A stretch of DNA of 64,000 bases from a virus (IMGVR_UViG_3300042544_000912:1-64000), one strand, 5' to 3'. Numbered from the stretch's first letter, positions 912-25,539 are shown. Program-made: numbers and translations. Notes: generated by a model from the letters alone, not told the origin.

Positions 912-1520
912 ATGAATGATGTAAAAGAAAGTTCTGAATACGAAAACTATCTGGACCAAGATGCGCGGATGCAAGACGAGTATCGCATGTCCCTGGAGCA
1001 TCTGGTAGGGGTGATTGATACGCCGCTTGCTGATAATTCTGGTAAGAAGAAAGTAGACCCTGACTTGTGGAAGGCTATCTATGTCCACTTCCGTAACGTT
1101 GAGGATATCGTAGACTTCTCGAAACGTATCGGGTATATCGTAGCGAATAACCTGAAAGACTTTTGGTTCCCCTTGGCGGATCCCCGTGCCGCGTTGTTTG
1201 ACGATGGCCAAGTGCCTTTGGTGGATGTGGATATGCGCTTGTGCGCTCCGCGAAGGGATAAGAATCTAGCTTCGCTGGAGGTTGAAGTTAATGAAACGGA
1301 AGAGAGTGCTTGGAAAGAGCATTGGGTGGGGATGCCAGAGTTTGAGTATCTAGAAGATAACGGACCAATTCGTTCGGTGATTGTGAAGTTCCGTCGAATT
1401 GAAGACTATGAAGAGTTCTCGCGGCGTATTGACCAGGTGCTGACGGATAAGTCGAAAGCAATCTGGCACCCTAAGCTAGAACGAACACCCAACTACCTTC
1501 TGAGATGGGTGGAAGAATGA
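912..1520 (+). CDS. internally duplicated protein of the type found beside phage DNA glycosyltransferases
   Basis: Two similar halves (AIYVHFRNVEDIVDFSKRI..KDFWFP / SVIVKFRRIEDYEEFSRRI..KAIWHP); WVGMPEF motif. Confidence 0.55.
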   Translation: MNDVKESSEYENYLDQDARMQDEYRMSLEHLVGVIDTPLADNSGKKKVDPDLWKAIYVHFRNVEDIVDFSKRIGYIVANNLKDFWFPLADPRAALFDDGQVPLVDVDMRLCAPRRDKNLASLEVEVNETEESAWKEHWVGMPEFEYLEDNGPIRSVIVKFRRIEDYEEFSRRIDQVLTDKSKAIWHPKLERTPNYLLRWVEE

Positions 1521-2602
1521 AGATATTGATGCCCGTCATCCAGCATGAGGGTAAGAACTACAAGCTAGATGACCCAATCGTTCTAGGTGGCGTGGAAATG
1601 TTCCAACGTCTGGTGTATGAGAATATACCAGGCGTTATTCCCGTTTATATCTCCTACGAAGATAGAATGAACCGCAAGACGTTTGAGATTATGCAACTGG
1701 CGGTGAATACGCATAAGCCAGATTTGATTTTCACGAACCACTTTAACAGAACTTATACAGTTGGCTTCCAGCAGTTTGATATTCCAGTGGTGTGGCTCAA
1801 TCACTCACCTGGTATTCGCTCTATCTACAATGTAGAATCCGTCAAAGCGATGAAAGAGTTTCTGAATAATCAGGGTTCATTATATTTCGTGAGCCAAGAC
1901 CAACATAATAAGTTCAATCAAATCTCCACAAGAATTGTTGGCCATGATATCGATGCTAATGGCTACATCAACTCTTGCTATGCCAATGGTAATGAACCAG
2001 TTCAACCCAACGAGGTCAGAGGCTTCGATGCTATTACAGTTGGTAGAACAGACCCGACTAAGAATCCATTCTTTCTTCACAACAAACTTAAAGGTAGTTC
2101 TCTAAGGTCTTGTGTTGTAACAAGTTCCCCGTTGTTTGGTAGCGATGCGCAACAGAAATATGCCGATGACAATGCTCATTGGGATAAGCCTAGAGAAGTC
2201 TATCGAAATCTAGACCACTCTTCTAGTATGATTATGCTTTCACTTGGTAAAGTTTATGTATCTACATGTCCGGTGGAATCATGGGGTATCACCGCACTTG
2301 AAGCATTGACGCGAGGACTACCACTTATTCTTGTTACTGATAGCAGCGGTACTCATGGAAGTCAAGCGGTTGCTGATAGTGATAAAGATTATATTACAAT
2401 ACCTACTACCGCTGACCAAGTGTGGCTGGAAAAAGCTATTAATACATTCAAAGACTTGACTTTTGAACAAAGATGTGATATATCTAATAGAACTAAACAG
2501 AAGCACAGTAAAGAACGTTGGTGTGAATCCATAAATAATATGTTCGCTAACAGCGTTTCTCGATTTTCGTCCCATTCTCTAGGTGGTTTATTTAATGACT
2601 AA
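1517..2602 (+). CDS. GT-B (GT4-like) glycosyltransferase
   Basis: VGRTDPTKNP and the E-x7-E signature ESWGITALEALTRGLP; ATGA overlap with the upstream stop. Confidence 0.8.
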   Translation: MKILMPVIQHEGKNYKLDDPIVLGGVEMFQRLVYENIPGVIPVYISYEDRMNRKTFEIMQLAVNTHKPDLIFTNHFNRTYTVGFQQFDIPVVWLNHSPGIRSIYNVESVKAMKEFLNNQGSLYFVSQDQHNKFNQISTRIVGHDIDANGYINSCYANGNEPVQPNEVRGFDAITVGRTDPTKNPFFLHNKLKGSSLRSCVVTSSPLFGSDAQQKYADDNAHWDKPREVYRNLDHSSSMIMLSLGKVYVSTCPVESWGITALEALTRGLPLILVTDSSGTHGSQAVADSDKDYITIPTTADQVWLEKAINTFKDLTFEQRCDISNRTKQKHSKERWCESINNMFANSVSRFSSHSLGGLFND

Positions 2603-3536
2603 TCCAAAATATCCAGTTTACATTGTTTCTAAGGGTCGTGCCGATACGATGATTACATCGCGGTCGTTGACTCGCATGAAGGTTCCACATTATATCATCA
2701 TCGAACCACAAGATGAGAAAGATTATGAACAAGCCAAGGTCAATTTTGGCTTGACTGATTATGTTACCTTGCTGGTTGCGCCCTTCTCTAATCACGGTGA
2801 TGGTCCTGGTCGGGCAAGAAACTGGGCATGGGACCACTCTATCAGTCTTGGTGCAGAAGCACACTGGGTTCTAGACGATAACATTTCAGATTTCTATCGC
2901 CTCCATCGCAATGAACGTATTCGCGTGGAGTCTGGCGTGTTCTTCACAGTCATGGAAGACTTCTTTGACCGCTATGAGAACCTCTACATCGCTGGTCCGC
3001 AGTATCGTTTCTTCATTGCACCCAATCAGAAGTATCCTCCGTATGTCGCTAACACTCGTATCTACTCAACTTTGCTGATACGTAACGATTGTAAGCATCG
3101 CTGGCGTGGTCGTTACAATGAAGATACTGATATTTGCTTGCGTGTATTGAAGGATGGTGACTGCACCGTGCAATTCAATGCGTTCTTGCAGGGTAAAGTT
3201 GCTACACAGACCATCAAGGGTGGTAACACAGCCGAGTTCTATCACAAAGAATTCTTGGAAGAGGGTGAAGAAGTCGAAGGCAAGCGTTACCACGAGAAGG
3301 GTACCATCAATAAGTCACAGATGTTGGCTGATATGCACCCAGATGTTGCGCGAGTTGTCTGGCGTTATGGTCGTTGGCATCATTATGTTGACTACACACC
3401 GTTCAAGAAGAACAAATTGACGCTAAAAGATGGTGTTACGTTGCCAGAAGGTGTCAATAATTACGGCATGAAGCTGATTACACTGCCGCCGGATACAAAA
3501 TACGCTAAAGATATTGATATTGACGACTATGTTTAA
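2595..3536 (+). CDS. GT-A glycosyltransferase, TET-associated (TAGT)/GREB1-like family
   Basis: YPVYIVSKGRAD start, HWVLDDNI (DxD-like), WRGRYNEDTDICLR; typical of predicted phage DNA-base glycosyltransferases. Confidence 0.75.
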   Translation: MTNPKYPVYIVSKGRADTMITSRSLTRMKVPHYIIIEPQDEKDYEQAKVNFGLTDYVTLLVAPFSNHGDGPGRARNWAWDHSISLGAEAHWVLDDNISDFYRLHRNERIRVESGVFFTVMEDFFDRYENLYIAGPQYRFFIAPNQKYPPYVANTRIYSTLLIRNDCKHRWRGRYNEDTDICLRVLKDGDCTVQFNAFLQGKVATQTIKGGNTAEFYHKEFLEEGEEVEGKRYHEKGTINKSQMLADMHPDVARVVWRYGRWHHYVDYTPFKKNKLTLKDGVTLPEGVNNYGMKLITLPPDTKYAKDIDIDDYV

Positions 3537-12318: not shown

Positions 12319-12347
12319 TTGACAAACTTGGCTATATGTTGTAATGT
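12319..12347 (+). promoter_or_regulatory. divergent sigma70-type promoter
   Basis: TTGACA at 12319 with a weaker -10 (TAATGT at N17). Confidence 0.4.
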
Positions 12348-12368: not shown

Positions 12369-12773
12369 ATGTCGATGCATCTGTTGGGCCCAGCTTATAC
12401 CACTAACAATAACCGTAAGCGCAAATCTAAAGTCCCTGTTACAAAATATTCACAGGACTGGGTAGATTATAATAAGCAGATGAAACGCATTGGTGCAAAG
12501 ACCAAGACGTTTGACGAATATGTTGCATATCGCCAAGGTAAGTCCGGCTTCAAACTAAAGAGTTGTGTGAGAGGTCCAATGGATGCTGCACCATATCGCC
12601 GCGAAGCACCTAAGTATGAGAGCGGAGATGGAATCGGCGTCACGTTTGCTAAGAAGCCCAATGAATATACAGGCACACTAATTAAGGGTATTGCCACGAT
12701 GCATAAATCTAATGCAGTGCCAGTTATCAATCAAGATCAGATGGAAGAAATCTCGAGGATGCGTAGAGGTTGA
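12369..12773 (+). CDS. conserved T4-like phage hypothetical protein
   Basis: C-terminal IKGIATMHKSNAVPV...EISRMR motif that I recognise from aquatic myophages; AAGGAG RBS. Confidence 0.65.
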   Translation: MSMHLLGPAYTTNNNRKRKSKVPVTKYSQDWVDYNKQMKRIGAKTKTFDEYVAYRQGKSGFKLKSCVRGPMDAAPYRREAPKYESGDGIGVTFAKKPNEYTGTLIKGIATMHKSNAVPVINQDQMEEISRMRRG

Positions 12774-14086
12774 GCGTAAAAGAAAAATTAGATTCTGTCG
12801 GACATGGCTTTTGCCCGCAAAAGTGGAGATGGCTTGCGCTTTATCTCCATTCAGGTCATAAGCATAGTTGTCATCATCCACCGCCGATGCATATTGCACT
12901 GGAGGAGATTTCCAAGGATCCTGCCGCGCTGCACAACACTTCACATGAAAAACAACAGCGTAAGACAATGCTGGAGGGCGGAAGACCGACCGAATGTTCA
13001 TACTGCTGGAGTATTGAAGATCTAGATAAAACAAGTGACCGTGTTTATAAGAACACCGATACCATAAACAATTTGTTTGTTTTAGACGATGAAATCGAAA
13101 CACTAAAGAATGTTCCTTGGGATCAAAACGTAAATCCCTATAACATGGAAATTAGTTTCAGTAATGCTTGTAATTTCAAATGCGGATATTGCTGTCCTAC
13201 ATTTTCTTCTCTGTGGGAAGATGAGATTAAACAACATGGCAATTATGATCTGAATTATGACCAATATGGATTGCACAATAAGATTTATTCTGAAAAAGAA
13301 TATAATCCTTATGTTGAAGCATTTTGGAAATGGTGGCCAGATTTGAAGAATGACTTAAAGATTTTTCGCATCACAGGCGGCGAGCCGCTAATGACTACTA
13401 ACACATTCAAGTTATTAGACATGTTAAAAGAAGATGGTAATCCGGAGTTGTTTCTACAGATTAATACCAACCTGGGTGTAACGAATCGAAAAGTCACTGA
13501 CTTCTGCCTTCGCGTTAATGATTTGATTGAAAAGAAGCATATCAAAAATCTTCGGTTGTTTACAAGCCTTGAATGCACGGGTAAGCAAGCAGAATATATG
13601 CGCCGCGGCTTAAACTACGAATTGTTCTTAGAAAATGTAAACACAGTCTTAGAAACAGTCCCTACCGCATATCTAAGTTTCATGACAACGTATAATGTGT
13701 TGACTGTTCCTTATTTCAAAGACTTTCTTCAATTAATAGTTGAATTGCGTGAAAAATGGGGCGAGAGAATTCTTATCGATATTCCTCACCTTAAAGAACC
13801 GCCTCATTGGACAATGAATATTTTACCCCCGGAGTTTGGAACATATATAGATAATGATGTTCAATACATGAAGCAAAACGGTTTCAGTGATATTGAAATC
13901 GGCAAAATGGAACGTGTCAGAGAATATTTCTATAACGATACGCATAATATCACCGACGAATACCGGTTGAATGGTAGAAAAGATTTTGCGAAGTTTTTTC
14001 CGGAATATGACCGTAGAAGTAACAGTAGTTTAATAGAAACATTTCCTGAATTTTCAGAATTTTTAGAATGGTGTAAAACATTATGA
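12770..14086 (+). CDS. radical SAM protein with N-terminal Twitch-like domain (copy 1)
   Basis: CNFKCGYC (CxxxCxxC), RITGGEP, N-terminal FCPQKW..SCHH..CSYC; TTG start overlapping the upstream TGA. Confidence 0.9.
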   Translation: MSVKEKLDSVGHGFCPQKWRWLALYLHSGHKHSCHHPPPMHIALEEISKDPAALHNTSHEKQQRKTMLEGGRPTECSYCWSIEDLDKTSDRVYKNTDTINNLFVLDDEIETLKNVPWDQNVNPYNMEISFSNACNFKCGYCCPTFSSLWEDEIKQHGNYDLNYDQYGLHNKIYSEKEYNPYVEAFWKWWPDLKNDLKIFRITGGEPLMTTNTFKLLDMLKEDGNPELFLQINTNLGVTNRKVTDFCLRVNDLIEKKHIKNLRLFTSLECTGKQAEYMRRGLNYELFLENVNTVLETVPTAYLSFMTTYNVLTVPYFKDFLQLIVELREKWGERILIDIPHLKEPPHWTMNILPPEFGTYIDNDVQYMKQNGFSDIEIGKMERVREYFYNDTHNITDEYRLNGRKDFAKFFPEYDRRSNSSLIETFPEFSEFLEWCKTL

Positions 14087-15507
14087 ATGACGATATCCAC
14101 ACTGAGCATAACTTGGATGTTCATTCTGTTGATTCTTATTGGAATTTCCTTAAAGAGAAACGCGAAGACATCAATTCTGTTAGTCCAACGTTTTGTGCGG
14201 CCAAGTGGAAGCAATCGACTATTCTTCTGTATAGCGGAGAAACGCATAGTTGCCACCATCCCTCACGACATAAAATTACTTTAGATGATATTAAAGATAA
14301 TCCACGGGGTATTCACAACACGGCAGTAAAAAAAGCAGCCCGTATTGATATGCTCAATGGTATACAAACTAAAGAATGTGATTATTGCTGGAAAATTGAG
14401 AACCTGAATAAAGATTGGATGAGTGATAGGATATACAAGTCCACATATTCATGGGCTCTCCCGCATATCGATGAAATTGTAAAATCTGGTGATGGAGCAA
14501 ATATCGACCCGTCATATTTAGAAGTTGCCTTTGAATCTACCTGTAATTTTAAATGCGTATACTGTAGCCCAGAAAGTTCTTCAAGATGGCAAGAAGAAAT
14601 CGAAACTCACGGTCCAATCGAACTGGAAGATTTCAAATTACATGATCTTGGATGGTTGAAGGAAGTTGGAAAACTTCCAATTCATCGTAAAGAACAAAAT
14701 CCATATATTGATGCTTTTTGGAAGTGGTGGCCTGACCTCTATCCCAATCTACATACGTTTAGAATAACTGGTGGTGAACCCCTACTCAGTAAACACACTT
14801 GGCGAGTCCTTGACTATATTGCCGAAAATCCAAATCCTAATTTAACACTTGCGATCAATACCAATCTCAATGTTCCTGATAAATTAGTTGAGAAACTAGT
14901 AGAATATATTAATAGAATCTCTGGTAATATTAAATTATTTGATGTATATACTTCTCTTGAAAGCACAGGTAAACAGGCTGAGTATTCTAGATTTGGTATG
15001 CAATTTGATGAGTTTAAGAAAAACTGTGAATATGTGTTAGACAATACGCCCGACACCACTAGACTACATTACATGACTACTATAAATCTGACTAGTGCAC
15101 CGACTCTTCTTGAATACCTGAAATATATTAGAGAAATGAGATTACGATATTTCAGTAAATTACATGAATTTAGAGTAAGAACCCATCTTTCATATCTTCG
15201 TTGGCCTAGAATGTTATGTTTGACGTTATTATCAGATGAAGATAAACAGAAGTTTGGAGACTTATGGATAGAATACGTCGAGCAGCATAAACTAACACAA
15301 CTGAAATCTACCGAAGAAACATTTTATTTAGAAGAAGTGGATCAGGTAAGAAGATTGGTTGACTATATGAGATCAACCAAAGAACCACAATCTTTATATA
15401 AAGACTTTAGAAACTATACTCGAAGTCTGGACAAACGTAGAAAAACCTCATTTGTTGAGACGTTTCCAGAACTTGCATATTTAATGGACGATGATTACTA
15501 TGGATGA
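14083..15507 (+). CDS. radical SAM protein with N-terminal Twitch-like domain (copy 2)
   Basis: CNFKCVYC, RITGGEP, FCAAKW..SCHH..CDYC. Confidence 0.9.
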   Translation: MNDDIHTEHNLDVHSVDSYWNFLKEKREDINSVSPTFCAAKWKQSTILLYSGETHSCHHPSRHKITLDDIKDNPRGIHNTAVKKAARIDMLNGIQTKECDYCWKIENLNKDWMSDRIYKSTYSWALPHIDEIVKSGDGANIDPSYLEVAFESTCNFKCVYCSPESSSRWQEEIETHGPIELEDFKLHDLGWLKEVGKLPIHRKEQNPYIDAFWKWWPDLYPNLHTFRITGGEPLLSKHTWRVLDYIAENPNPNLTLAINTNLNVPDKLVEKLVEYINRISGNIKLFDVYTSLESTGKQAEYSRFGMQFDEFKKNCEYVLDNTPDTTRLHYMTTINLTSAPTLLEYLKYIREMRLRYFSKLHEFRVRTHLSYLRWPRMLCLTLLSDEDKQKFGDLWIEYVEQHKLTQLKSTEETFYLEEVDQVRRLVDYMRSTKEPQSLYKDFRNYTRSLDKRRKTSFVETFPELAYLMDDDYYG

Positions 15508-16819
15508 CCCCATGTTAAATTTTAGAAACGCCGTTTTGGATTCTAAATCAAAATCTTTCTGTGGTGCCAAATGGGGAAATAGTACCCTTTGGTTAAATAG
15601 TGGAGAAACCAGTAGTTGTCACCTGCCTCCTGTCCATAAGATTGATGCTGAACAGATTGCAATCGATCCTTCTAAGTTGCACAATACAGATCATAAATTT
15701 AAAATGCGCAAGTTGATGCAGGACGGTATTAAACCCTCCGAATGTGATTATTGTTGGAAAATTGAAAGTATGGGCGATACTTTTATTTCCGACCGCGTCT
15801 TTAAGTCTCTACAGTTTACAAATGATGAGATGCAGGAATGGTTCGAACTTCCGGCAGATACTAGAATTATTCCTCCTACCCTGGAAGTAATGTTCGACCG
15901 TACCTGCAATTTTGCATGTAGTTACTGTAATGCAAATTTCAGTACCACATGGGAACGTGATATCAAGACGCACGGATATTATGAACTGGAAACTAGAGGT
16001 GGTGGTGCATTTAAACATGATGGTTCATATAACAATACGCACGAAAAAACTTCTAATCCGTATATCTCAGCATTCTGGGAATGGTGGCCAGAACTTAGTC
16101 AAAAACTTCGGGTTCTCCGCATAACAGGCGGAGAACCATTAATGAATACCGATGTTTGGAAGCTGATTGATATGTTTGCTGAAAACAAATATACTTTCGA
16201 GCTTGGCATCAATACAAATTTGGGCGCCAAGAAATCGATTATTGATAGGCTCATCAAAAAGTCATTTGATATCGAAAAGCTGTGTCTCTTTACAAGTATG
16301 GAAACAACAGGCGCCCAAGCGGAATATATTAGAGATGGGTTAGATTATGACGCATGGTGTAACAACGTAGAACGTATTTTGGAAGAATCTAATGTTAAAC
16401 GTATCGTTGTGATGATGACTATTAATGCCTTGTGTCTGTTCAATATTACCGAATTTATGGATCAGGTGCAACAATGGAAGCGCAAATACAATAACAGAAT
16501 TTCGATGAGCATAAATTTTCTTAGATTCCCTGCATTTCAGAGTTTGACTGTTCTTCCTGATAACATTAGAACTGCGGCACATGAGAAGTTGCTTGTGTGG
16601 TATGAAAAAAATAAAAACGAATTAATAGGCAATGAAAAGAGTGACGTAGAACGGTTAATATCTTATGTAAGTGTAATCGAAACTCCTCACGCATATGACG
16701 ATGACTTGGAATTGAATCGTAAAGATTTTAAGAGTTTTTATTCCCAATACAGTCATCGCAGAAATAAAACACTAGATGTATTTCCAGGAGAACTGCTAGA
16801 ATGGTACAACACATTATGA
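15500..16819 (+). CDS. radical SAM protein with N-terminal Twitch-like domain (copy 3)
   Basis: CNFACSYC, RITGGEP, FCGAKW..SCHL..CDYC. Confidence 0.9.
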   Translation: MDDPMLNFRNAVLDSKSKSFCGAKWGNSTLWLNSGETSSCHLPPVHKIDAEQIAIDPSKLHNTDHKFKMRKLMQDGIKPSECDYCWKIESMGDTFISDRVFKSLQFTNDEMQEWFELPADTRIIPPTLEVMFDRTCNFACSYCNANFSTTWERDIKTHGYYELETRGGGAFKHDGSYNNTHEKTSNPYISAFWEWWPELSQKLRVLRITGGEPLMNTDVWKLIDMFAENKYTFELGINTNLGAKKSIIDRLIKKSFDIEKLCLFTSMETTGAQAEYIRDGLDYDAWCNNVERILEESNVKRIVVMMTINALCLFNITEFMDQVQQWKRKYNNRISMSINFLRFPAFQSLTVLPDNIRTAAHEKLLVWYEKNKNELIGNEKSDVERLISYVSVIETPHAYDDDLELNRKDFKSFYSQYSHRRNKTLDVFPGELLEWYNTL

Positions 16820-17994
16820 GAAATGATGGCTATTGTGCGCTACCATTTAATCATATGAATCTACATCCAAACGGAAACGTTTCTATATGTTGTGTGTCTA
16901 AAATGGGAGGACCAGATAGCGGTTTTGCCAAAGATGAAAATGGTAAGCTATTAAATCTACGAACCCATACGATAAATGAAATTTTTGATGCTCCGTCTGT
17001 TAACAAGATCCGCGAACAGATGTTAAATGGGGAATTTCCATCTGCTTGTGAGGGCTGCTATAAAATAGAACAGTATGGTGGAAAATCTCGAAGAACCACA
17101 GAAAATACTCGTTGGCCAAAACGCGAAACGCCTGGATTAGAATTTATCGATTTGCGATTGAGTAATCTATGTAATCTGAAATGTCTAATGTGTTATCCAG
17201 ATTCCAGCTCGGCTTTGGTAACAGATTATAACGAGTGGGCAGACAGTCTTCCGTTCGTGACAAAGAATAATACAGATTTTGATAATTTCCAGTGGTTTAA
17301 CGAAGACATCATCGATCAATTGAAAGAACATAAAGATACTTTGAAATATCTTTATATCAATGGCGGCGAACCTTTCATTATGCCAATGCAGTGGAAAATG
17401 TTGGAGAAATTAATTGAGTGGGATGTTGCTAAAAATATTCACATTAGCTATAATACAAATTGCACAACCTATAGCGATTCTTTTAGCGAATATTGGAAAC
17501 ATTTTAAAGTGGTCACGTTGGGATGCAGTGTAGACGCCACAGGAGATAAGAATTCTTTTATTCGATATCCGTCAAAGTGGGATGTCGCAAATGAAAATAT
17601 TCGCAAATTGTTAGAGAATCCATATATTCATGGCATGAATATTACTTGTAGTATTCAGTGGTTAAATGCACCCTTTTTACCTGAATTTTATGATTGGGCA
17701 GTGCCATTGACCAAACTTAAACCGCATACTACAATCAATCAGAATTTTATAGTATTCCCCGATTACTTGTCGTTAAATTGTGCGTCTAAACAATTTAAGC
17801 AGGACTTATCTACGGTTTATGAGGAATCTCAATACAGAGATTATATTTTGACTGAAACAATGAAATCATATCTTAGATTTTCTCCAGATTCATCTGAGCA
17901 ATGGAATAATGGTAATAAATACCTCGACGTAGTGCAGTTGAGCCGAAAAATGGGCCCATGGAAAGATATATTCGATTATGACTATAGATTCTAA
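16816..17994 (+). CDS. radical SAM protein with N-terminal Twitch-like domain (copy 4)
   Basis: CNLKCLMC, NGGEP, YCALPF..ICC..CEGC. Confidence 0.9.
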   Translation: MRNDGYCALPFNHMNLHPNGNVSICCVSKMGGPDSGFAKDENGKLLNLRTHTINEIFDAPSVNKIREQMLNGEFPSACEGCYKIEQYGGKSRRTTENTRWPKRETPGLEFIDLRLSNLCNLKCLMCYPDSSSALVTDYNEWADSLPFVTKNNTDFDNFQWFNEDIIDQLKEHKDTLKYLYINGGEPFIMPMQWKMLEKLIEWDVAKNIHISYNTNCTTYSDSFSEYWKHFKVVTLGCSVDATGDKNSFIRYPSKWDVANENIRKLLENPYIHGMNITCSIQWLNAPFLPEFYDWAVPLTKLKPHTTINQNFIVFPDYLSLNCASKQFKQDLSTVYEESQYRDYILTETMKSYLRFSPDSSEQWNNGNKYLDVVQLSRKMGPWKDIFDYDYRF

Positions 17995-19246
17995 TAATAA
18001 TACAATTTGTCCCTATCCTTTTGTGCATTCCTATATAGGTTCGCAGTATGAAAGAAAATTGTGTTGTATTTCCGACGACATTGATGGGTTACAAAAAACA
18101 ACTGTAGACCAGTTTTGGAATTCTGATTTTATGCGTGAAACTCGCAAGAAAATGGTATCTGGTGAAAAAGTAGACCATTGCAATAGATGTTATTATTTTG
18201 AGAGTATTGATGTTCCATCTTTGCGCGAAGAAAGTTGCCGACATTACGATGAAAAAGATTTGTTCGAGGGGTATAATCCTGATACTGGAGAGATGAGTGT
18301 AAACCCGACCTATTTTGACCATAGAACAATTTATTGCAATTTACAGTGCGTGAGTTGTGGATATGTTTATAGTTCTACCCACATGTCACTTTATGAAAAG
18401 ATGTGGAATAAAACTATACAATTTAAAGTCGACCGAGAGTTTGAAGAAAATACCGCGAAAGAAATTTTGGATTCTATCAAAAATAAAGAATGTAGGAATA
18501 TTTACTGGGCGGGCGGCGAGCCTATGATGTCAAAAGTCCATTGGATGGTTGTCGAATTGATGGAACAACTATCCTCGGACCCGGAGTATTCTGATTACAT
18601 TCGAGGATTAGGTGTCCATTATAATACAAATCTTACTAAGTTATCTTGGAATGGTAAAAATATTCCAGATATGTTGGAATTCTATCAACCATCGATTCAG
18701 GCAAGCATCGACGGCACACATGAAACCTTTGAGTATTGTCGTGATGGTGGTAGATGGGATTCTGTATCAACCAATTGGGACGAGTATTATGAGAAGCTGA
18801 ATAAGAATCAACAATTTGGTATTGCTTCTGTTCTCTCGTCTCCGGTATTAATGGACATCGACCGCTGGTTTGATTTTTTTGAACAATATAATGTAAAAAT
18901 CTATAATCACAAATATATTTGTCATCATGAACAATATCCACATTCTGCGCAAGGATTTTTAGATATTAGACTTTTTCCACAGCATATTTTTGATAAAGTG
19001 GTAAATCATGCTATTAGTAGATTTGAAAACAGCAATATGATTGGCGCAGATAAAAGTATTGATATTATTAAATCCTATATTCAAGAAAAAGAAATGTATA
19101 AAGAATTTTTTGAAGATATGGAATTGTTGAAGGAAATCAAGAAAACTAATGAATATAGAGATAAGTTCAACAAGGGTGGTAAAACATATCCTGAGTTACT
19201 ACAAATAATTAATCCTGAAGCATATGAGTGGTATTTGTCCATATGA
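17978..19246 (+). CDS. radical SAM protein with N-terminal Twitch-like domain (copy 5)
   Basis: CNLQCVSC, AGGEP, ICPYPF..LCC..CNRC. Confidence 0.9.
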   Translation: MTIDSNNNTICPYPFVHSYIGSQYERKLCCISDDIDGLQKTTVDQFWNSDFMRETRKKMVSGEKVDHCNRCYYFESIDVPSLREESCRHYDEKDLFEGYNPDTGEMSVNPTYFDHRTIYCNLQCVSCGYVYSSTHMSLYEKMWNKTIQFKVDREFEENTAKEILDSIKNKECRNIYWAGGEPMMSKVHWMVVELMEQLSSDPEYSDYIRGLGVHYNTNLTKLSWNGKNIPDMLEFYQPSIQASIDGTHETFEYCRDGGRWDSVSTNWDEYYEKLNKNQQFGIASVLSSPVLMDIDRWFDFFEQYNVKIYNHKYICHHEQYPHSAQGFLDIRLFPQHIFDKVVNHAISRFENSNMIGADKSIDIIKSYIQEKEMYKEFFEDMELLKEIKKTNEYRDKFNKGGKTYPELLQIINPEAYEWYLSI

Positions 19247-20388
19247 GCGAAACCAAAATTTATTGTCCGTCTATGTGGAAATCAGTGCATGTTGATACTG
19301 ATGGCTATGTAACTCCATGCTGTCTTTTTATTCATAAAGAGGACAAAAAAAGCAAACTCGTTAATATAGAACATGCCGAGAGAGTTTTGCAAGAAGAATT
19401 CCAGGAGTACCGAGATCAACTCTCAGAGGGAATCTGGCCCAGCGGCTGCAATCAATGTAAATTCGCAGAAGAAGAAGGTAGATCGAGTAAACGTCAACAA
19501 GATTTGTGGGTTATTGACGGCGGATTGATGAAAACTAATCCAGAAGAAGTTTCTCTGGAATATCTGCAATTAAAAACTGGAAGATTGTGTAATCTTCGGT
19601 GCACTATATGCACTCCAGCTTGTTCAACTGCAATCTCGACGGAATTGTTACGCAAGGGTGAATTGGACCGAGAAACATATGACCGTCTCAACGAAGAAAT
19701 TGCTTGGTCGTATAATCTTGAACAATACAAAAAATTAAATCCCGGAAAAAACGGATACTTCAGGATTGATATTGCCGGCGGTGAACCGCTTATGAATAAA
19801 ACGCATTTTGAGTGGTTAGATCAAATCCCAAATCCAGAAAATACACAATTGTTATATAATACCAATGGTACGCAACGGCCGTCTCGTGAAGAAATTGAAA
19901 TCTGGAAAAAGTTTAGAGGAATATGGCTGTCATTCAGTATCGATTCTTACGGTGAAAAGTTTGAACAATTGAGAGTTGGTGCGAAGTGGAATCAAGTTCT
20001 TGACAATTTAAAATATTGTCAGGAAGAAATTATAGCAAAAGAATTTGATACTAACACTTCTAATTGCTCCATTGTCATGACAGTTAGTAAATTTAATGTT
20101 CGAGATGCGATTACACTCTATCAAATAATTAATCAGTATGTAACATTTACACATAAAGAACCGTTAAATTTTAATTATCTATATTATCCTGAACAAATGG
20201 CTTGTCACAACATGCCTAAGAAAGAGTTGGAGGATGTAATAGCTTTATATGACCAACAAATTCCTATGTTACTAGATGGTAGTAAAATGAAGAAACAATG
20301 TATAGATTTGCGTAATAGTTTAGCATCATTTCTAGAGGATAAGCAAATTGAGAATCCTAGACCTATTTCTATTGATCACAGGAAATAA
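19243..20388 (+). CDS. radical SAM protein with N-terminal Twitch-like domain (copy 6)
   Basis: CNLRCTIC, AGGEP, YCPSMW..PCC..CNQC. Confidence 0.9.
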   Translation: MSETKIYCPSMWKSVHVDTDGYVTPCCLFIHKEDKKSKLVNIEHAERVLQEEFQEYRDQLSEGIWPSGCNQCKFAEEEGRSSKRQQDLWVIDGGLMKTNPEEVSLEYLQLKTGRLCNLRCTICTPACSTAISTELLRKGELDRETYDRLNEEIAWSYNLEQYKKLNPGKNGYFRIDIAGGEPLMNKTHFEWLDQIPNPENTQLLYNTNGTQRPSREEIEIWKKFRGIWLSFSIDSYGEKFEQLRVGAKWNQVLDNLKYCQEEIIAKEFDTNTSNCSIVMTVSKFNVRDAITLYQIINQYVTFTHKEPLNFNYLYYPEQMACHNMPKKELEDVIALYDQQIPMLLDGSKMKKQCIDLRNSLASFLEDKQIENPRPISIDHRK

Positions 20389-20390
20389 TT

Positions 20391-21221
20391 ATGGACGTTA
20401 GCAATAAAAAACGAATGATATTTTTTGGCTGTTCCTTTACTTCTGGTCATGAACTCATGGATCACGATTTTCTTGGAATATCTTTTGATGAATGCAATAA
20501 ACTAAAAGAACAACATCTTCTTGAAAAGAAGTCGGTTGGTAAATTTGATACCTATATAAAAAATGTTGCAAATATTGATAATGCCCAGTATAATGATATG
20601 TCATCTAAAAAGTCTTATGGCGCTAAATTAGCAAATAAACTCGAACTTGAACATGTCAATTATGCCGAACCGGGCTTATCTATGGAACATTCATTCTTAA
20701 AACTAATTCATGCATTTCATTCCGGTGAAATAAATCCTTCCACAGATTTAATTTTTTTTGGACTTACTACCCCGCATAGATATATGTTGTTTACTGAGCA
20801 TGGTATACCCATAACTAAAGTTATGAGCGATCAAAATTATGCACCAGAGGATCTTCATTACAACGATTATAAGATAATGCAATCATACTATTTTTCTTTG
20901 GAAAATTTTAAAAATTTTTGCCTAACCAATTCATTTGATTTTATTTTGCAACCGGTCGTCAATAAAGGACTATTATTAACAGGAATGGTAGAGCCAAAAT
21001 ATGAGATGTTTATGGATATTCAACGTGATTGGAAATATCTGCCAATGTTTACTAAAATGTTAGAAAATAGTCTAGAATATTGTATCGATCAAGATGTAAC
21101 TCTGGTTTCAAGATATAACCCGAAAATACATGGTGTTTGTGGCTTCAAACATCCTACTGAAATAGCCCACGAATACTTTGCGGAGGAACTTTATGCTAAA
21201 ATTACTAATAAACAAGATTAA
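20391..21221 (+). CDS. SGNH/GDSL hydrolase-like protein (esterase or acyltransferase)
   Basis: IFFGCSFTSG block I and C-terminal HPTEIAH block V. Confidence 0.6.
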   Translation: MDVSNKKRMIFFGCSFTSGHELMDHDFLGISFDECNKLKEQHLLEKKSVGKFDTYIKNVANIDNAQYNDMSSKKSYGAKLANKLELEHVNYAEPGLSMEHSFLKLIHAFHSGEINPSTDLIFFGLTTPHRYMLFTEHGIPITKVMSDQNYAPEDLHYNDYKIMQSYYFSLENFKNFCLTNSFDFILQPVVNKGLLLTGMVEPKYEMFMDIQRDWKYLPMFTKMLENSLEYCIDQDVTLVSRYNPKIHGVCGFKHPTEIAHEYFAEELYAKITNKQD

Positions 21222-21297
21222 ATCATATTTTGCTAAAAGAAAGTATCTAAAACGAATTAAAGAATTGCGTAAACTGGATCCGTTCATTTATGATTGA
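21193..21297 (+). CDS. 34-aa basic peptide (not in the ORF track)
   Basis: MLKLLINKIKSYFAKRKYLKRIKELRKLDPFIYD; the ELRK.DPFIY end is a motif I recognise upstream of phage carbamoyltransferases; overlaps both neighbours. Confidence 0.6.
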   Translation: MLKLLINKIKSYFAKRKYLKRIKELRKLDPFIYD

Positions 21298-22723
21298 ATG
21301 GGGTATATCTGCCGCAGCACATGATGCGTCTTTGACTGTTGTTTCTGGTAATGAAATTTTGTTCGCCTCTCATGCGGAAAGATATTCTGGCATCAAGAAT
21401 GATAAGGACTTAAATGCTGATTTAATTCACGCGGCATTAAAATTTGGTAAGCCAGAAAAGATACACTGGTACGAAAAACCAAAACTTAGAGCGATGAGAC
21501 GATTGCTATCTGGTCAGGGCCTCGTTCGATTTAGTGTTAGACAGTATCTTGCGGCATTCGGTCTAAAAGATATTCCTGTTGAATTTGCATATCATCATGA
21601 ATCCCATGCCGCAGCTGGCTTTTACACTTCGCCTTATGAGAATGCGACCGCTCTCGTTATTGACGCTATCGGTGAATTTGATACCGCGTCTATCTGGAAA
21701 TGTTCCGGTGAGAACCTGAAAAAGAAATGGTCGATGGACTATCCCAAGTCTTTGGGACTGTTCTACTCTGCCATGACAGACCGAGTTGGTCTTAAAGCAA
21801 ATGAAGATGAATATATCTTAATGGGAATGGTAGCATATGGCGAACCCGAAAAATATTACGACGAAGTTAGAAATCTTTGGGAATCTGAAAACCTTCATCG
21901 CGGATGTCGTTGGTGGCGTAATGATGACTTTGATTTGGACCACTATAGTGTTGCCGCAGCAACGCAAAAAGTATATGAAGAAGAATTTGAAAAACTACTG
22001 ATACGCGCAAAGATGAAAGACACCTTCCAAGACAATCTTGTTCTTATGGGTGGATGTGCGTTAAACTGTAGTGCAAATCATATTGCACGAAAGTATTTTG
22101 ATAATGTCTGGATTATGCCTAATCCTGGAGATTCGGGTAGTTCTTTAGGTGCTATTGCAGCTAACAACAGACAGAAGTTTAACTGGAAGGGCCCATATCT
22201 AGGCGCAGATATGGGAGGAGAGTTTCCTGTAGAAAAACTCTTGACAGAATTGCGTAAGACGGGTATAGTGGGTGTAGCAAATGGGCAAGCAGAATTTGGG
22301 CCAAGAGCATTAGGCAATCGCAGTCTTCTAGCAGACCCACGAGGTCATGATATAAAGGACAGAGTAAATGAAATCAAGCAACGACAGAAGTTTCGTCCGT
22401 TCGCTCCAGTCATTCTGGCAGAACATGCGAGAGACTACTTTGAAATGTCATGGGAAGACTCCCCTTATATGCAATATACTTCAAGATGTAAATATCCTGA
22501 TCGGTTTCCTGCTATTGTTCATGCTGATGGGACATCTCGTGTCCAGACTGTGACAAAAGAGCAACATTCTGGACTATATGAACTTATTAGCAGATGGTAT
22601 GAAGAAACTGGATGTCCAATGCTATTGAATACGAGTCTCAATATCAAGGGTATGCCCATGGTGAATAACTTCAAAGATGCAGACGATTTTGAGGCCAAAT
22701 ATGGCGTGAAAGTCTTTTCGTAA
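21290..22723 (+). CDS. carbamoyltransferase, NodU/CmcH family
   Basis: HDAS, HHESHAAAGF, IDAIGE, SLGLFYS, MGGCALNC, EFGPRALGNRSLLADPR, RPFAP, LLNTSLN. Confidence 0.95.
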   Translation: MIEWGISAAAHDASLTVVSGNEILFASHAERYSGIKNDKDLNADLIHAALKFGKPEKIHWYEKPKLRAMRRLLSGQGLVRFSVRQYLAAFGLKDIPVEFAYHHESHAAAGFYTSPYENATALVIDAIGEFDTASIWKCSGENLKKKWSMDYPKSLGLFYSAMTDRVGLKANEDEYILMGMVAYGEPEKYYDEVRNLWESENLHRGCRWWRNDDFDLDHYSVAAATQKVYEEEFEKLLIRAKMKDTFQDNLVLMGGCALNCSANHIARKYFDNVWIMPNPGDSGSSLGAIAANNRQKFNWKGPYLGADMGGEFPVEKLLTELRKTGIVGVANGQAEFGPRALGNRSLLADPRGHDIKDRVNEIKQRQKFRPFAPVILAEHARDYFEMSWEDSPYMQYTSRCKYPDRFPAIVHADGTSRVQTVTKEQHSGLYELISRWYEETGCPMLLNTSLNIKGMPMVNNFKDADDFEAKYGVKVFS

Positions 22724-22734
22724 TAAATATTTAC

Positions 22735-23004
22735 ATGAGCAATATTCTAAAGTTCCCGAACAAATTTCGCAAGGAAGCTAGAAGTTATCGCATACCGTTG
22801 TATACGGATGCTGATATAGAGATTGTGTTATTTTGCGTTAATGCTTTTGGGGTTACTCCAAATAGAAACATGATAGACGACTTATTAGCAATGGACCCAA
22901 TTGAAGTTATAGAATGTCTTGACATTGCCAGCCAATCTGATATAATATCAACTGTAGCTAAGAATCACATACGCTGCATACGTGAATCTATTGAAGAAAG
23001 TTAA
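22735..23004 (+). CDS. hypothetical protein (89 aa)
   Basis: ORF downstream of an AATAAATA late-promoter-like element. Confidence 0.55.
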   Translation: MSNILKFPNKFRKEARSYRIPLYTDADIEIVLFCVNAFGVTPNRNMIDDLLAMDPIEVIECLDIASQSDIISTVAKNHIRCIRESIEES

Positions 23005-23010
23005 TATATT

Positions 23011-23559
23011 ATGAATATCTTTTATTTGGACCGTGACGTTTCCAAGTGTGCCGAATATCATAACGACAAGCATGTCGTCAAGATGATTATAGAGTATGCA
23101 CAACTGCTATCTACCGCCCATCGCGTAATCGACGGCGTAGAATATGTGGATAAGACTGCCAATGGCAGGTCAATCAAACGCTGGCGAATGGAAGACAATA
23201 CTCTTGAAACAGTCCTCTACAAAGCTACGCATATCAATCATCCGAGTGCTGTCTGGGTTCGCCAGTCTAACAATAATTATAACTGGCTTGTATGTCTATT
23301 CCAATCCTTGCTTGCAGAATACACTCATCGCTATGGTAAAATCCATGCTACCGAACGACTAGTGTATTTTCTCCGCAAGCCGCCTCAGAATATTCCAGTC
23401 AGTCATCTGACACAGCCAACTCCTGCTATGCCAGACGAATACAAGGTACATGGTGACTCTCTACAGTCATATCGTAACTATTATGTAGGTGCAAAAAAAA
23501 CTATGGCAAAATGGAAAAATCGTGAAATTCCTTGCTGGTGGAAAGACGCGACACAATAA
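23011..23559 (+). CDS. pyrimidine-dimer DNA glycosylase (DenV/endonuclease V-like family)
   Basis: MNIFYLD..HNDKHVVKMIIEYAQLLSTAHR, YKATHINHPSAVW, PAMPDEYK, YRNYY. Confidence 0.8.
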   Translation: MNIFYLDRDVSKCAEYHNDKHVVKMIIEYAQLLSTAHRVIDGVEYVDKTANGRSIKRWRMEDNTLETVLYKATHINHPSAVWVRQSNNNYNWLVCLFQSLLAEYTHRYGKIHATERLVYFLRKPPQNIPVSHLTQPTPAMPDEYKVHGDSLQSYRNYYVGAKKTMAKWKNREIPCWWKDATQ

Positions 23560-23567
23560 ATAACTGC

Positions 23568-23656
23568 ATGAAGACAGTTATACCGATTTCACCTCCCGAA
23601 TTCACAGTGCCTCCCTCGGCACTAGGCGACTCTGCGCTTGCAGGGTCGCCTTTTTT
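23568..23656 (+). ncRNA. candidate small RNA: two CU-rich-loop hairpins plus intrinsic terminator
   Basis: AATAAATA (23555-23562) upstream; hairpin gatttc-ACCTCCC-gaattc (23585-23603); hairpin agtgcc-TCCCTC-ggcact (23606-23623); terminator aggcgactctgc-gctt-gcagggtcgcct-TTTTT (23624-23656). Confidence 0.5.
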
Positions 23657-24480: not shown

Positions 24481-25149
24481 ATGTTTAAAACGATCTATGA
24501 TTATACCGATTTCGCCCAAGATGAAACAAGAGAAGATGGTAGCAGAGTTTACGTCAATGCCTTAGGTGTTGGATATCCCTCTGCTACCACTGTTCTCGGT
24601 GTTCTGAATAAAGATGGCATCAACAAGTGGCGTGAGCGCGTTGGCGAAGAAGAAGCCAATCGCATTTCTAAGCAAGCTACTACTCGTGGAACTAAAATCC
24701 ACACACTTACCGAATCATATCTAAAGAATGAAGAAGTCGATTTCGATAGCGTGAAAGCGTCCTTGTTAGACAAGGAAATGTTCAATAAGTTTAAATCAAT
24801 TCTTGACCCTATCGATAACATTCACTGCCAAGAACTGGCGCTATACAGCGACTTCTTGCGTATGGCTGGTCGTGTTGACTGTATCGGAGAATACAACGGT
24901 ATTCGTGCCGTAATCGACTTTAAGACTTCTAATCGGCCCAAGAAGAAGGAACATATCAGTTCCTACTTTATGCAGACCGCTGCATATGCAATCATGTATG
25001 AAGAACGAACTGGTATTCCTGTTCCCTTTCTCGTTATCTTGATTGCCGTAGATGGTGATGAGCCTCAGGTGTTCGTAGAAAAACGAGACAATTGGGCAAA
25101 AAAATTGCTTGAAGCCCGTGATTTGTTTGAAAAAGGTATTGACAAATAA
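24481..25149 (+). CDS. PD-(D/E)xK exonuclease (phage RecB/Cas4-like family)
   Basis: YPSATTVL, RGTKIH, ELALYSD, AGRVDCI, IDFKTS, YFMQ..AYA. Confidence 0.85.
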   Translation: MFKTIYDYTDFAQDETREDGSRVYVNALGVGYPSATTVLGVLNKDGINKWRERVGEEEANRISKQATTRGTKIHTLTESYLKNEEVDFDSVKASLLDKEMFNKFKSILDPIDNIHCQELALYSDFLRMAGRVDCIGEYNGIRAVIDFKTSNRPKKKEHISSYFMQTAAYAIMYEERTGIPVPFLVILIAVDGDEPQVFVEKRDNWAKKLLEARDLFEKGIDK

Positions 25150-25167
25150 GACTTAAGGTCTTATATA
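25139..25167 (+). promoter_or_regulatory. sigma70-type promoter of the tmRNA gene
   Basis: TTGACA-N17-TATATA; the spacer contains the inverted repeat ATAAGAC-ttaag-GTCTTAT. Confidence 0.6.
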
Positions 25168-25173
25168 TAGATT

Positions 25174-25476
25174 ATCAGTTGTTGACAGGCAACAATAAAG
25201 GCGGAAAGACGCGGGTGCAACTCCCGCCACCTCCACCATAGATACATCAAGGTCCGACCCGAAAGGGGTGCCTACTAAAGTGAGGGATGATGGTGTATCT
25301 ATGATGGGGGTGAACTAGGATCGATTTTCGTGTAATAGGAAGTCCGAGACTGATTGCTTGGCAAAGTGCCACTAAAAGTAAATGCAAACGATAACGTTGC
25401 CTTTGCAGGATATGCGCTAGCCGCATAATCTCATTGGGTTTTTGATAGTTTTCCCTCGAAACAGAATAAAACTATC
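25174..25476 (+). ncRNA. ssrA: circularly permuted (two-piece) tmRNA
   Basis: T-arm GCGGG-TGCAACT-CCCGC plus CACCTCC-A-CCA (25211-25238) lies before the 5' strand GGGGGTG (25306-25312), giving a 7-bp acceptor stem with G3:U70; self-paired intervening segment 25239-25305; tag ORF 25384-25428 ANDNVAFAGYALAA*; 3' hairpin 25444-25476; 5' and 3' ends approximate. Confidence 0.93.
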
Positions 25477-25539
25477 ACCTGTTCTTCTTATACGATGAAA
25501 TGCGTGGAAGTAGAACTTAGAAATGCTAAATAGTTATAT

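Follow-up and report, generated by a model that had tools for sequence, protein, structure and literature searches.

Six overlapping genes of an uncultured ocean phage encode radical S-adenosylmethionine (rSAM) enzymes that we read, with a probability of roughly 0.55, as tailoring a sugar structure through successive radical steps; the reading leaves the target and the reaction unspecified. The genes lie in a 64,000-nucleotide stretch of DNA (IMGVR_UViG_3300042544_000912:1-64000, hereafter the window), taken from the start of an IMG/VR virus record of 130,898 bp whose completeness is put at ~80%. Membership of the six proteins in one family, intact motifs, homology of their twitch module to that of BtrN, purifying selection, and a link to glycosyltransferases and a carbamoyltransferase by synteny and gene fusion are directly supported. 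New in this analysis are the BtrN twitch match, the fusions to glycosyltransferases and a carbamoyltransferase, and an apparently swapped sub-cassette within the operon.

Family membership, motifs, and likeness to BtrN

The six open reading frames (ORFs) lie on the plus strand between 12770 and 20388, overlap by 4 to 19 nt at their junctions, and contain no internal stop codons. All six match NCBIfam NF033640 (N_Twi_rSAM, "twitch domain-containing radical SAM protein") with 219 to 315 bits, against a curated cut-off of 170 bits, and the matches span model positions 1-4 to 360-397 of 398. These six genes are the only family members in the 130,898-bp record. The radical SAM Pfam PF04055 was also detected across the copies (E 1e-10 to 2e-5), with copy 3 scoring 25.1 bits, under the Pfam cut-off of 29.5. 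Four cysteines near the N terminus, C15, C34, C76, and C79 in copy 1 numbering (C-x18-C-x41-C-x2-C), are invariant in the six-copy alignment, and in every copy this module precedes the CxxxCxxC motif (C134, C138, and C141); GGEP (203-206) and NTN (232-234) are likewise invariant. Exact coordinates and alignment columns thus bear out the sequence-only reading, a prediction made from the DNA by itself, in its description of six overlapping genes with CxxxCxxC, GGEP, and an N-terminal Cys cluster. That reading had also singled out the N-terminal twitch layout as the reverse of the typical one; the layout is not new, because all six proteins exceed the curated cut-off and the reversed domain order belongs to an already catalogued family. 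Each copy is expected to bind a SAM-cleaving [4Fe-4S] cluster at CxxxCxxC and a second, fully Cys-ligated cluster in the N-terminal twitch module.

We built a profile from the first 110 residues of copies 4 to 6 and their orthologs (24 sequences) and searched it against 177,635 PDB sequences. The sole significant match was the twitch domain of BtrN (4m7s/4m7t, E 4.6e-5), in which all four cluster-ligating cysteines line up with similar spacing. The N-terminal 110 residues of copy 4, used as a single query, gave no PDB match. For the Cys4 twitch auxiliary cluster of BtrN, a role in electron transfer has been proposed (PMC10337720). A fold search with the whole AlphaFold2 model of copy 1 (predicted local distance difference test [pLDDT] score, 94.3) recovered the generic rSAM core only, with SkfB, BlsE, anSME, viperin, MoaA, and DesII tied at Z scores of 11.5 to 13.4. 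BtrN was not listed among the top whole-model matches, which does not exclude a likeness to BtrN. Only the twitch module matches BtrN by sequence, so that a BtrN-type oxidation of an aminocyclitol or sugar hydroxyl is at most suggested by this match.

Divergence, orthology, and selection of the six copies

Copies 1 to 3 share 37 to 40% identity and form a real subfamily, as first proposed. The companion proposal, that copies 4 to 6 form a second one, did not hold up: they show 22 to 26% identity among themselves and 19 to 25% to copies 1 to 3. Because they are about as distant from each other as from copies 1 to 3, copies 4 to 6 are three deep lineages that have only an architecture in common. 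Their common traits are a CC pair at the second Cys position and the absence of an NPY..AFW.WWP insert. We built a tree of 177 family members, drawn from 80 related viral loci that were fetched among at least 581 IMG/VR relatives of copy 1. Each copy has its own ortholog clade in other contigs, and the six copies are old paralogs. The copy 1 clade is the "core" (107 sequences from 74 loci) and provides the sole copy in many loci, while copy 3 orthologs were found in 11 loci.

Compared with the closest relative, the viral locus L001, copy 1 is 98% identical, with a dN/dS of 0.037; the dN/dS values of copies 2, 3, and 4 are 0.024, 0.021, and 0.057. Copies 1 to 4 are therefore under strong purifying selection (dN/dS 0.02 to 0.06), in line with the sequence-only view of a multienzyme operon retained by selection. 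On these values, the genes are not pseudogenes, a possibility raised together with that view. Among cultured phages, copy 2 is 51.5% identical to a gene of Ralstonia phage RsoM2USA, and copy 6 has a counterpart in Vibrio phages K566 and K567, with 25% identity across 96% of copy 6. Searches by tblastn with copies 2, 4, and 6 found only these phages and one marine single-cell fragment.

Conservation is uneven along the operon. Between the window and L001 or L003, copies 1 to 4 are 96 to 98% identical, exceeding the backbone genes (87 to 92%), while the values fall to 53% for copy 5, 81% for copy 6, and 51% for the SGNH protein encoded downstream, and return to 92% for the carbamoyltransferase. 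Because the identities of copy 5, copy 6, and the SGNH protein are far under those of the other operon genes, the segment 17978-21221 (counterparts, L001 10577-13850 and L003 7201-10474) looks like a swapped or fast-diverging sub-cassette within an otherwise conserved operon. This pattern suggests that copy 5, copy 6, and the SGNH protein may act on the same variable part of the product. The GC content of the array block is 35 to 36%, compared with 41 to 43% in its flanks; together, the sub-cassette variation and the lower GC content are the behavior expected of a variable surface-chemistry cassette.

Fusions and gene context

At least 5,660 representative proteins match the family profile at E ≤ 1e-30 in a library of 1.84 billion proteins clustered at 50% identity. 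Of the best 150 of the 5,660 matches, 32 combine two or three family domains in one chain, and 12 have a different domain, longer than 200 aa, attached. The proteins with an identified extension are an rSAM-GT2 protein (P0035), a GT7C/GT2-like-rSAM protein (P0075, and more weakly P0116), a fusion of cluster c1 to rSAM (P0053, hhalign E 1.5e-48; c numbers denote clusters of neighboring genes), an rSAM with a complete carbamoyltransferase (P0126, E 1.9e-62), and a protein with a partial subtilase (S8) domain (P0037, E 1e-10). The fusions mirror the gene order of the operons; therefore, the rSAM proteins probably work on the same substrate as the glycosyltransferases and the carbamoyltransferase.

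Gene context points the same way. Of the 80 related loci, 66 have one or more glycosyltransferase-type clusters within 10 kb; among the 52 loci that reach 15 kb or more, 44 do. The neighboring types are GT8 (glycogenin, E 3e-5), GT7-like, GT2, c1, and c5. UDP-glucose dehydrogenase, methyltransferase, B12-rSAM, and carbamoyltransferase genes are frequent additional neighbors, and the arrays often lie directly behind tail-fiber genes. One recurrent order is tail fiber, c7, c6, two GT8, c4, one or two c1, the rSAM array, SGNH, and c5; another is S74 fiber, c25, methyltransferase, GT2, c14, two GT7-like, rSAM, and c5. The cultured Ralstonia jumbo phage RsoM2USA has c6, GT8, GT8, a 184-aa gene, c1, and rSAM in this order, and K566 and K567 each have three grouped rSAM genes. 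Clusters c1, c4, c5, c6, and c7 have no match in Pfam, NCBIfam, or PHROGs, and a PDB profile search with c1 found no match; the DxD motif of c1 is invariant, and an automatic label places this cluster as "GT2-like".

In cellular genomes, full-length relatives occur almost only in metagenome-assembled genomes (MAGs) of Bdellovibrionota, where family members exceeding the cut-off were detected in 45 of 201 sampled genomes; there are 16 copies in one genome of 1.9 Mb and 23 in another genome. On a 230-kb Bacteriovoracaceae MAG contig, the gene order is GT1, two unassigned genes, carbamoyltransferase, GT1, DegT sugar aminotransferase, and two rSAM genes, the apparent make-up of a surface-polysaccharide locus. 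Single rSAM genes amid housekeeping genes on the Bdellovibrionota MAG contigs L086 and L090 were uninformative on function and were set aside.

Operon partners

The protein of 276 aa encoded directly after the array has a predicted SGNH fold, and the earlier identification of an SGNH enzyme at this place is borne out as a predicted enzyme. Its AlphaFold2 model (pLDDT 86.8) gave Foldseek matches in the PDB of which nearly all listed were of the SGNH type, from E 1.7e-5, including the CE2 carbohydrate esterase 2w9x, the peptidoglycan O-acetyltransferase PatB (7tjb), and TesA. We count the presence of carbohydrate esterases and an O-acetyltransferase among these best matches in favor of a sugar substrate. 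Ser15 (in GCS), the candidate nucleophile of block I, and His254 of block V do not vary among 12 homologs; a block-III Asn and a triad Asp were not recognized. The protein has no match in Pfam, NCBIfam, or PHROGs, and a PDB profile search of its family was also empty.

The carbamoyltransferase contains Carbam_trans_N (PF02543, E 5.4e-37) and Carbam_trans_C (PF16861, E 2.7e-53), and among proteins of solved structure it is nearest to GdmN, NovN, and TobZ (E 1e-50 to 3e-36). It scores 139 with the NodU equivalog model, far under the cut-off of 1000, and is therefore a family member and not NodU itself. Because a natural fusion exists and both genes recur in synteny, this enzyme is probably tied functionally to the rSAM family, and its original placement with the array stands.

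The carbamoyltransferase gene start is overlapped by an ORF for a 34-aa peptide, ending in KRIKELRKxDPFIY[DK]-stop, which is kept upstream of the carbamoyltransferase gene in L001, in L003, and in a distant 258-kb viral contig (L060). At the head of the operon stands a gene for a basic protein of 134 aa with a single H-x-S and an RRG tail. Homologs are encoded by Methylophilales phage Melnitz and by Delftia phage PhiW-14, where the surrounding genes are small and hypothetical, and also by Acidovorax phage ACP17 and a Synechococcus phage; the Melnitz, PhiW-14, and ACP17 records gave no rSAM match when searched by tblastn with copies 2, 4, and 6. The 134-aa protein was considered as a dedicated rSAM substrate and rejected: because its homologs occur in phages in which no rSAM of the family was found, it appears to share the transcript without being a dedicated substrate. 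The unrelated phages have in common a conserved block, YTGTLIKGIATMHKSNAVPV...RMRRG, at the C terminus of the protein, and the ESM Atlas was uninformative for this protein.

A proposed sugar-tailoring line and the alternatives to it

In the tailoring line proposed here, each paralog would abstract a hydrogen from a different C-H of a sugar residue, carried on a nucleotide-sugar or a growing oligosaccharide, and the twitch cluster would accept the second electron. Each step could be a BtrN-like dehydrogenation to a keto-sugar or a follow-on epimerization or dehydration from the same radical. Removal or transfer of an O-acyl group might then fall to the SGNH-fold protein, and capping of a hydroxyl would fall to the carbamoyltransferase; the whole set would make up a multistep line for a phage-specified glycan, whose carrier may be the virion or tail fiber, a host envelope polysaccharide, or a free molecule. 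The sugar substrate, the reaction type, and the order of steps are what we infer. The sequence-only reading had allowed "a glycan, nucleotide or virion protein" as the target; a sugar structure is favored because of the glycosyltransferase fusions, the glycosyltransferase-rich synteny, the polysaccharide-type Bacteriovoracaceae locus, and the BtrN-like twitch, and the target is narrowed accordingly.

Several points weigh against a sugar-tailoring line. A literature search found no paper naming or characterizing the NF033640 family and no assayed member, consistent with the initial statement that these enzymes have no known substrate. The fusions are known as predicted proteins only, and P0126 and P0035 were not retrieved by the viral-contig scans. 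The context statistics are biased, the related loci having been chosen by similarity to copy 1, and c1 and c5 are putative glycosyltransferases by motifs and an automatic label only. Moreover, no glycosyltransferase is adjacent to the array in the window: the nearest are a GT1-like gene and a TET-associated-type glycosyltransferase gene (TAGT) at 1505-3536, ~9 kb upstream and past the curli/cyclase module. For this reason the array type of the window, represented also by L001 to L003, falls in the minority without neighboring glycosyltransferases. Finally, whole-protein fold searches do not discriminate among rSAM enzymes.

The array might instead serve protein or peptide maturation, that is, the cross-linking or oxidation of a virion protein (e.g., a tail fiber) or a small precursor, as by anSME, SkfB, and sactisynthases. 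SkfB and anSME are indeed among the top structural neighbors (Z scores of 13.4 and 12.6), most characterized SPASM/twitch enzymes act on peptides, the arrays of relatives lie directly behind tail-fiber genes, one fusion carries the partial subtilase, and small ORFs (134 and 34 aa) belong to the operon. However, the analysis found no conserved precursor: the 134-aa protein occurs in phages without a detected rSAM of the family, and the 34-aa peptide travels with the carbamoyltransferase and not with the rSAM genes; a substrate encoded farther away, such as a tail fiber, may still exist. Pfam and NCBIfam detected no RRE-type domain, and the enzymes have one 4-Cys cluster rather than the 7-Cys SPASM pattern. 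Since the glycosyltransferase fusions are also better explained by a sugar substrate, we regard maturation as unlikely, while noting that a glycoprotein glycan would fit both readings.

Somewhat less probable again is hypermodification of the phage DNA, in which a base-linked group or sugar would be elaborated by the rSAM enzymes, the carbamoyltransferase, and the SGNH protein in cooperation with the products of the TAGT and GT1 genes (1505-3536). The TAGT (PF20691, E 1.4e-43) and the GT1-like gene are present in the window, conversion of 5-hydroxymethylcytosine (5hmC) to 5-carbamoyloxymethylcytosine has been demonstrated for a phage carbamoyltransferase (PMC8670742), copies 1 to 3 have weak secondary NCBIfam matches to nucleotide-using rSAM enzymes (MoaA, viperin, QueE, and NrdG), and in three loci (L035, L036, and L071) a single rSAM gene lies near DNA ligase, QueD/PTPS-like, and UvdE genes. 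Against this, the 130,898-bp record encodes ThyX only, with no ThyA-type hydroxymethylase (PF00303) or Tet_JBP detected in this ~80% complete genome, whereas DNA-modifying carbamoyltransferases co-occur with thymidylate synthase homologs and those on unmodified contigs adjoin GT1 genes (PMC8670742). Expansion of the family in Bdellovibrionota, where one MAG has it in a polysaccharide-type locus, and fusion to GT2/GT7-type transferases rather than to DNA enzymes likewise argue against DNA as the substrate. The least probable of the alternatives is a free secondary metabolite: the array would build a small molecule resembling an aminoglycoside or a nucleoside and released within the infected cell, perhaps against competitors, rather than a glycan bound to a polymer. 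The toolkit parallels aminoglycoside and natural-product tailoring (BtrN-like twitch rSAM, TobZ/GdmN/NovN-related carbamoyltransferase, B12-rSAM, DegT aminotransferase, and glycosyltransferases), and a linked aminotransferase, rSAM, and amidinotransferase gene set is described for cyanomyoviruses (PMC12801897). Yet no scaffold-forming enzyme (cyclitol synthase, nonribosomal peptide synthetase, or polyketide synthase) or exporter was seen in the window or the loci examined, and the position behind tail fibers, among GT8/GT2-type transferases, is typical of surface glycans.

A sugar-tailoring line thus remains our preferred reading. More tentatively, N_Twi_rSAM arrays may constitute a widespread and so far undescribed "radical glycan-editing" system of phages and predatory Bdellovibrionota, in which each paralog, often coupled to a glycosyltransferase, would install a different radical change on a sugar as it is added, and swaps of sub-cassettes, such as that of copy 5, copy 6, and the SGNH protein here, would re-code surface chemistry between near-identical phages. 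Such a system would involve sugar structures and rSAM reactions not yet known. The investment is considerable: the array occupies 7.6 kb of the phage, and the family accounts for >1% of a 1.9-Mb predator genome. If these enzymes do act on sugars, they would represent a large untapped source of radical carbohydrate chemistry. They would also add a further level at which the surfaces of phages, and of predators, vary, with a bearing on host range in ocean bacteria that are abundant. The function is directly testable, given the BtrN-like twitch, the fusions, and the cultured carriers (RsoM2USA and K566/K567).

Genome setting and operon layout

The source phage is a T4-like marine myovirus of the pelagimyophage kind. 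The window encodes gp59, gp32, a T4 baseplate protein, PhoH, a CsgG/FecR/CHASE2-cyclase "curli" block, and a transfer-messenger RNA (tmRNA), in agreement with published pelagimyophage descriptions (PMC7029224). Nothing among 50,697 phage records matched the 10-kb block in a megablast search. Table 1 lists the features of the block.

Table 1. Features of the rSAM array block and homologs of its first gene
Feature	Position	Strand	Remarks
Promoter-like site	12319..12347	+	Perfect -35 TTGACA, 17-nt spacer, weak -10 TAATGT
134-aa basic protein, phrog_27048	12369..12773	+	First operon gene; stop overlaps the TTG start of copy 1
rSAM copy 1, 438 aa	12770..14086	+	NF033640, 300.5 bits
rSAM copy 2, 474 aa	14083..15507	+	NF033640, 315.1 bits
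rSAM copy 3, 442 aa	15491..16819	+	NF033640, 275.2 bits
rSAM copy 4, 397 aa	16801..17994	+	NF033640, 314.5 bits; Pfam SPASM at residues 12-87, E 3.4e-8
rSAM copy 5, 422 aa	17978..19246	+	NF033640, 236.9 bits; opens the apparently swapped or hypervariable sub-cassette
rSAM copy 6, 386 aa	19228..20388	+	NF033640, 218.8 bits; Pfam SPASM at residues 13-78
Predicted SGNH/GDSL-fold protein, 276 aa	20391..21221	+	AlphaFold2 model and Foldseek
34-aa basic peptide ORF	21193..21297	+	C terminus ..RIKELRKLDPFIYD; overlaps genes on both sides
O-carbamoyltransferase, 477 aa, NodU/CmcH/TobZ family	21290..22723	+	Pfam domains
89-aa ORF	22735..23004	+	Final tightly spaced gene of the block; 84% identity in L001
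Strong intrinsic-terminator-like hairpin	23624..23651	+	12-bp stem, 8 GC pairs, then a T run
134-aa protein homolog	L125 3722-4117		PhiW-14 gene 114
134-aa protein homolog	L126 5992-6435		Melnitz gp124

The promoter-like site scores under the threshold of the promoter scan, and a ribosome-binding site, AAGGAG, lies between it and the ATG at 12369. Alternative in-frame ATG codons at 16816 in copy 4 and at 19243 in copy 6 would each create an ATGA overlap with the preceding copy. The hairpin is the first strong terminator-like one 3' of the block, past a DenV-like gene. No T4-type late motif (TATAAATA) was found in 4486-27746; together with the promoter-like site, this gives weak evidence that the block may be expressed early or in the middle phase. 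A perfect sigma-70 consensus (TTGACA, 16 nt, TATAAT, and a TG extension) is located at 22919-22946, directly 5' of the DenV-like gene at 23011. ARAGORN predicted a permuted (two-piece) tmRNA at 25146-25519 with the tag ANDNVAFAGYALAA. Near the other end of the record, a c5-type putative glycosyltransferase gene comes directly after ThyX (123064-124634).

Some features of related loci were also observed. A B12-binding (class B) rSAM of 600 to 690 aa repeatedly lies directly 3' of N-twitch arrays (cluster c40, seven loci; L004 16901-18817). In a minority context of a single "core" rSAM (L035 and L036), the order is DNA ligase, c53, one unclustered gene, c32, rSAM, c36, c37, QueD/PTPS-like, and UvdE, and L071 has the same genes in a slightly different order; this context hints that some family members could act on a nucleotide-derived substrate. 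In the 1.9-Mb Bdellovibrionales chromosome OZ220490.1, the 16 copies form three or four arrays, at 792-803 kb, 1068-1092 kb, and 1531 kb. One array of eight there comes after PIN-PhoH and FHA-GGDEF genes, and the phage window also has PhoH, directly 3' of its array.

Comparison with known systems

The closest catalogued relative is NF033640 itself, with which the six copies share a full-length match and the N-terminal 4-Cys module ahead of the CxxxCxxC core. NF033640 is a catalogue entry without an attached reaction or substrate, whereas the six deep paralogs of the window share their operon with genes for an SGNH protein and a carbamoyltransferase. Papers on pelagimyophage and marine T4-like genomes mention rSAM gene cassettes in passing (PMC7029224 and PMC5332604), report their gain and loss among close relatives, and describe one T4-like genome with 12 rSAM genes. 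Those phages resemble the window phage in being T4-like and in having a curli/FecR/cyclase module, PhoH, and tmRNA; their rSAM genes are given no family assignment, domain analysis, or function in these papers.

BtrN, the 2-deoxy-scyllo-inosamine dehydrogenase of butirosin biosynthesis (4M7S/4M7T), is a carbohydrate-type rSAM enzyme. Its twitch domain is C-terminal to the core, while here the module occupies residues 1 to 100, ahead of the core; in addition, BtrN has ~270 aa, compared with 386 to 474 aa here, and the rest of the protein is not specifically BtrN-like. SkfB (6EFN) and anSMEcpe (4K36), the top structural neighbors, have in common with the phage enzymes a partial TIM-barrel core and an extra Fe-S domain, and copies 4 and 6 match Pfam SPASM. 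In SPASM/twitch maturases and anSME, however, the domain is C-terminal, usually with seven Cys and two clusters, and the substrate is a peptide or protein, in contrast to the single N-terminal 4-Cys module, the only four conserved extra cysteines, and the glycosyltransferase fusions of the family described here.

As for the carbamoyltransferase, TobZ, GdmN, and NovN have 576 to 702 aa, compared with 477 aa for the window enzyme, and both Carbam_trans domains are common to them. The phage 5hmC carbamoyltransferases accompany a thymidylate-synthase-type hydroxymethylase (PMC8670742), and none was detected with the window enzyme in the ~80% complete record; the window enzyme is preceded by the conserved 34-aa peptide ORF.

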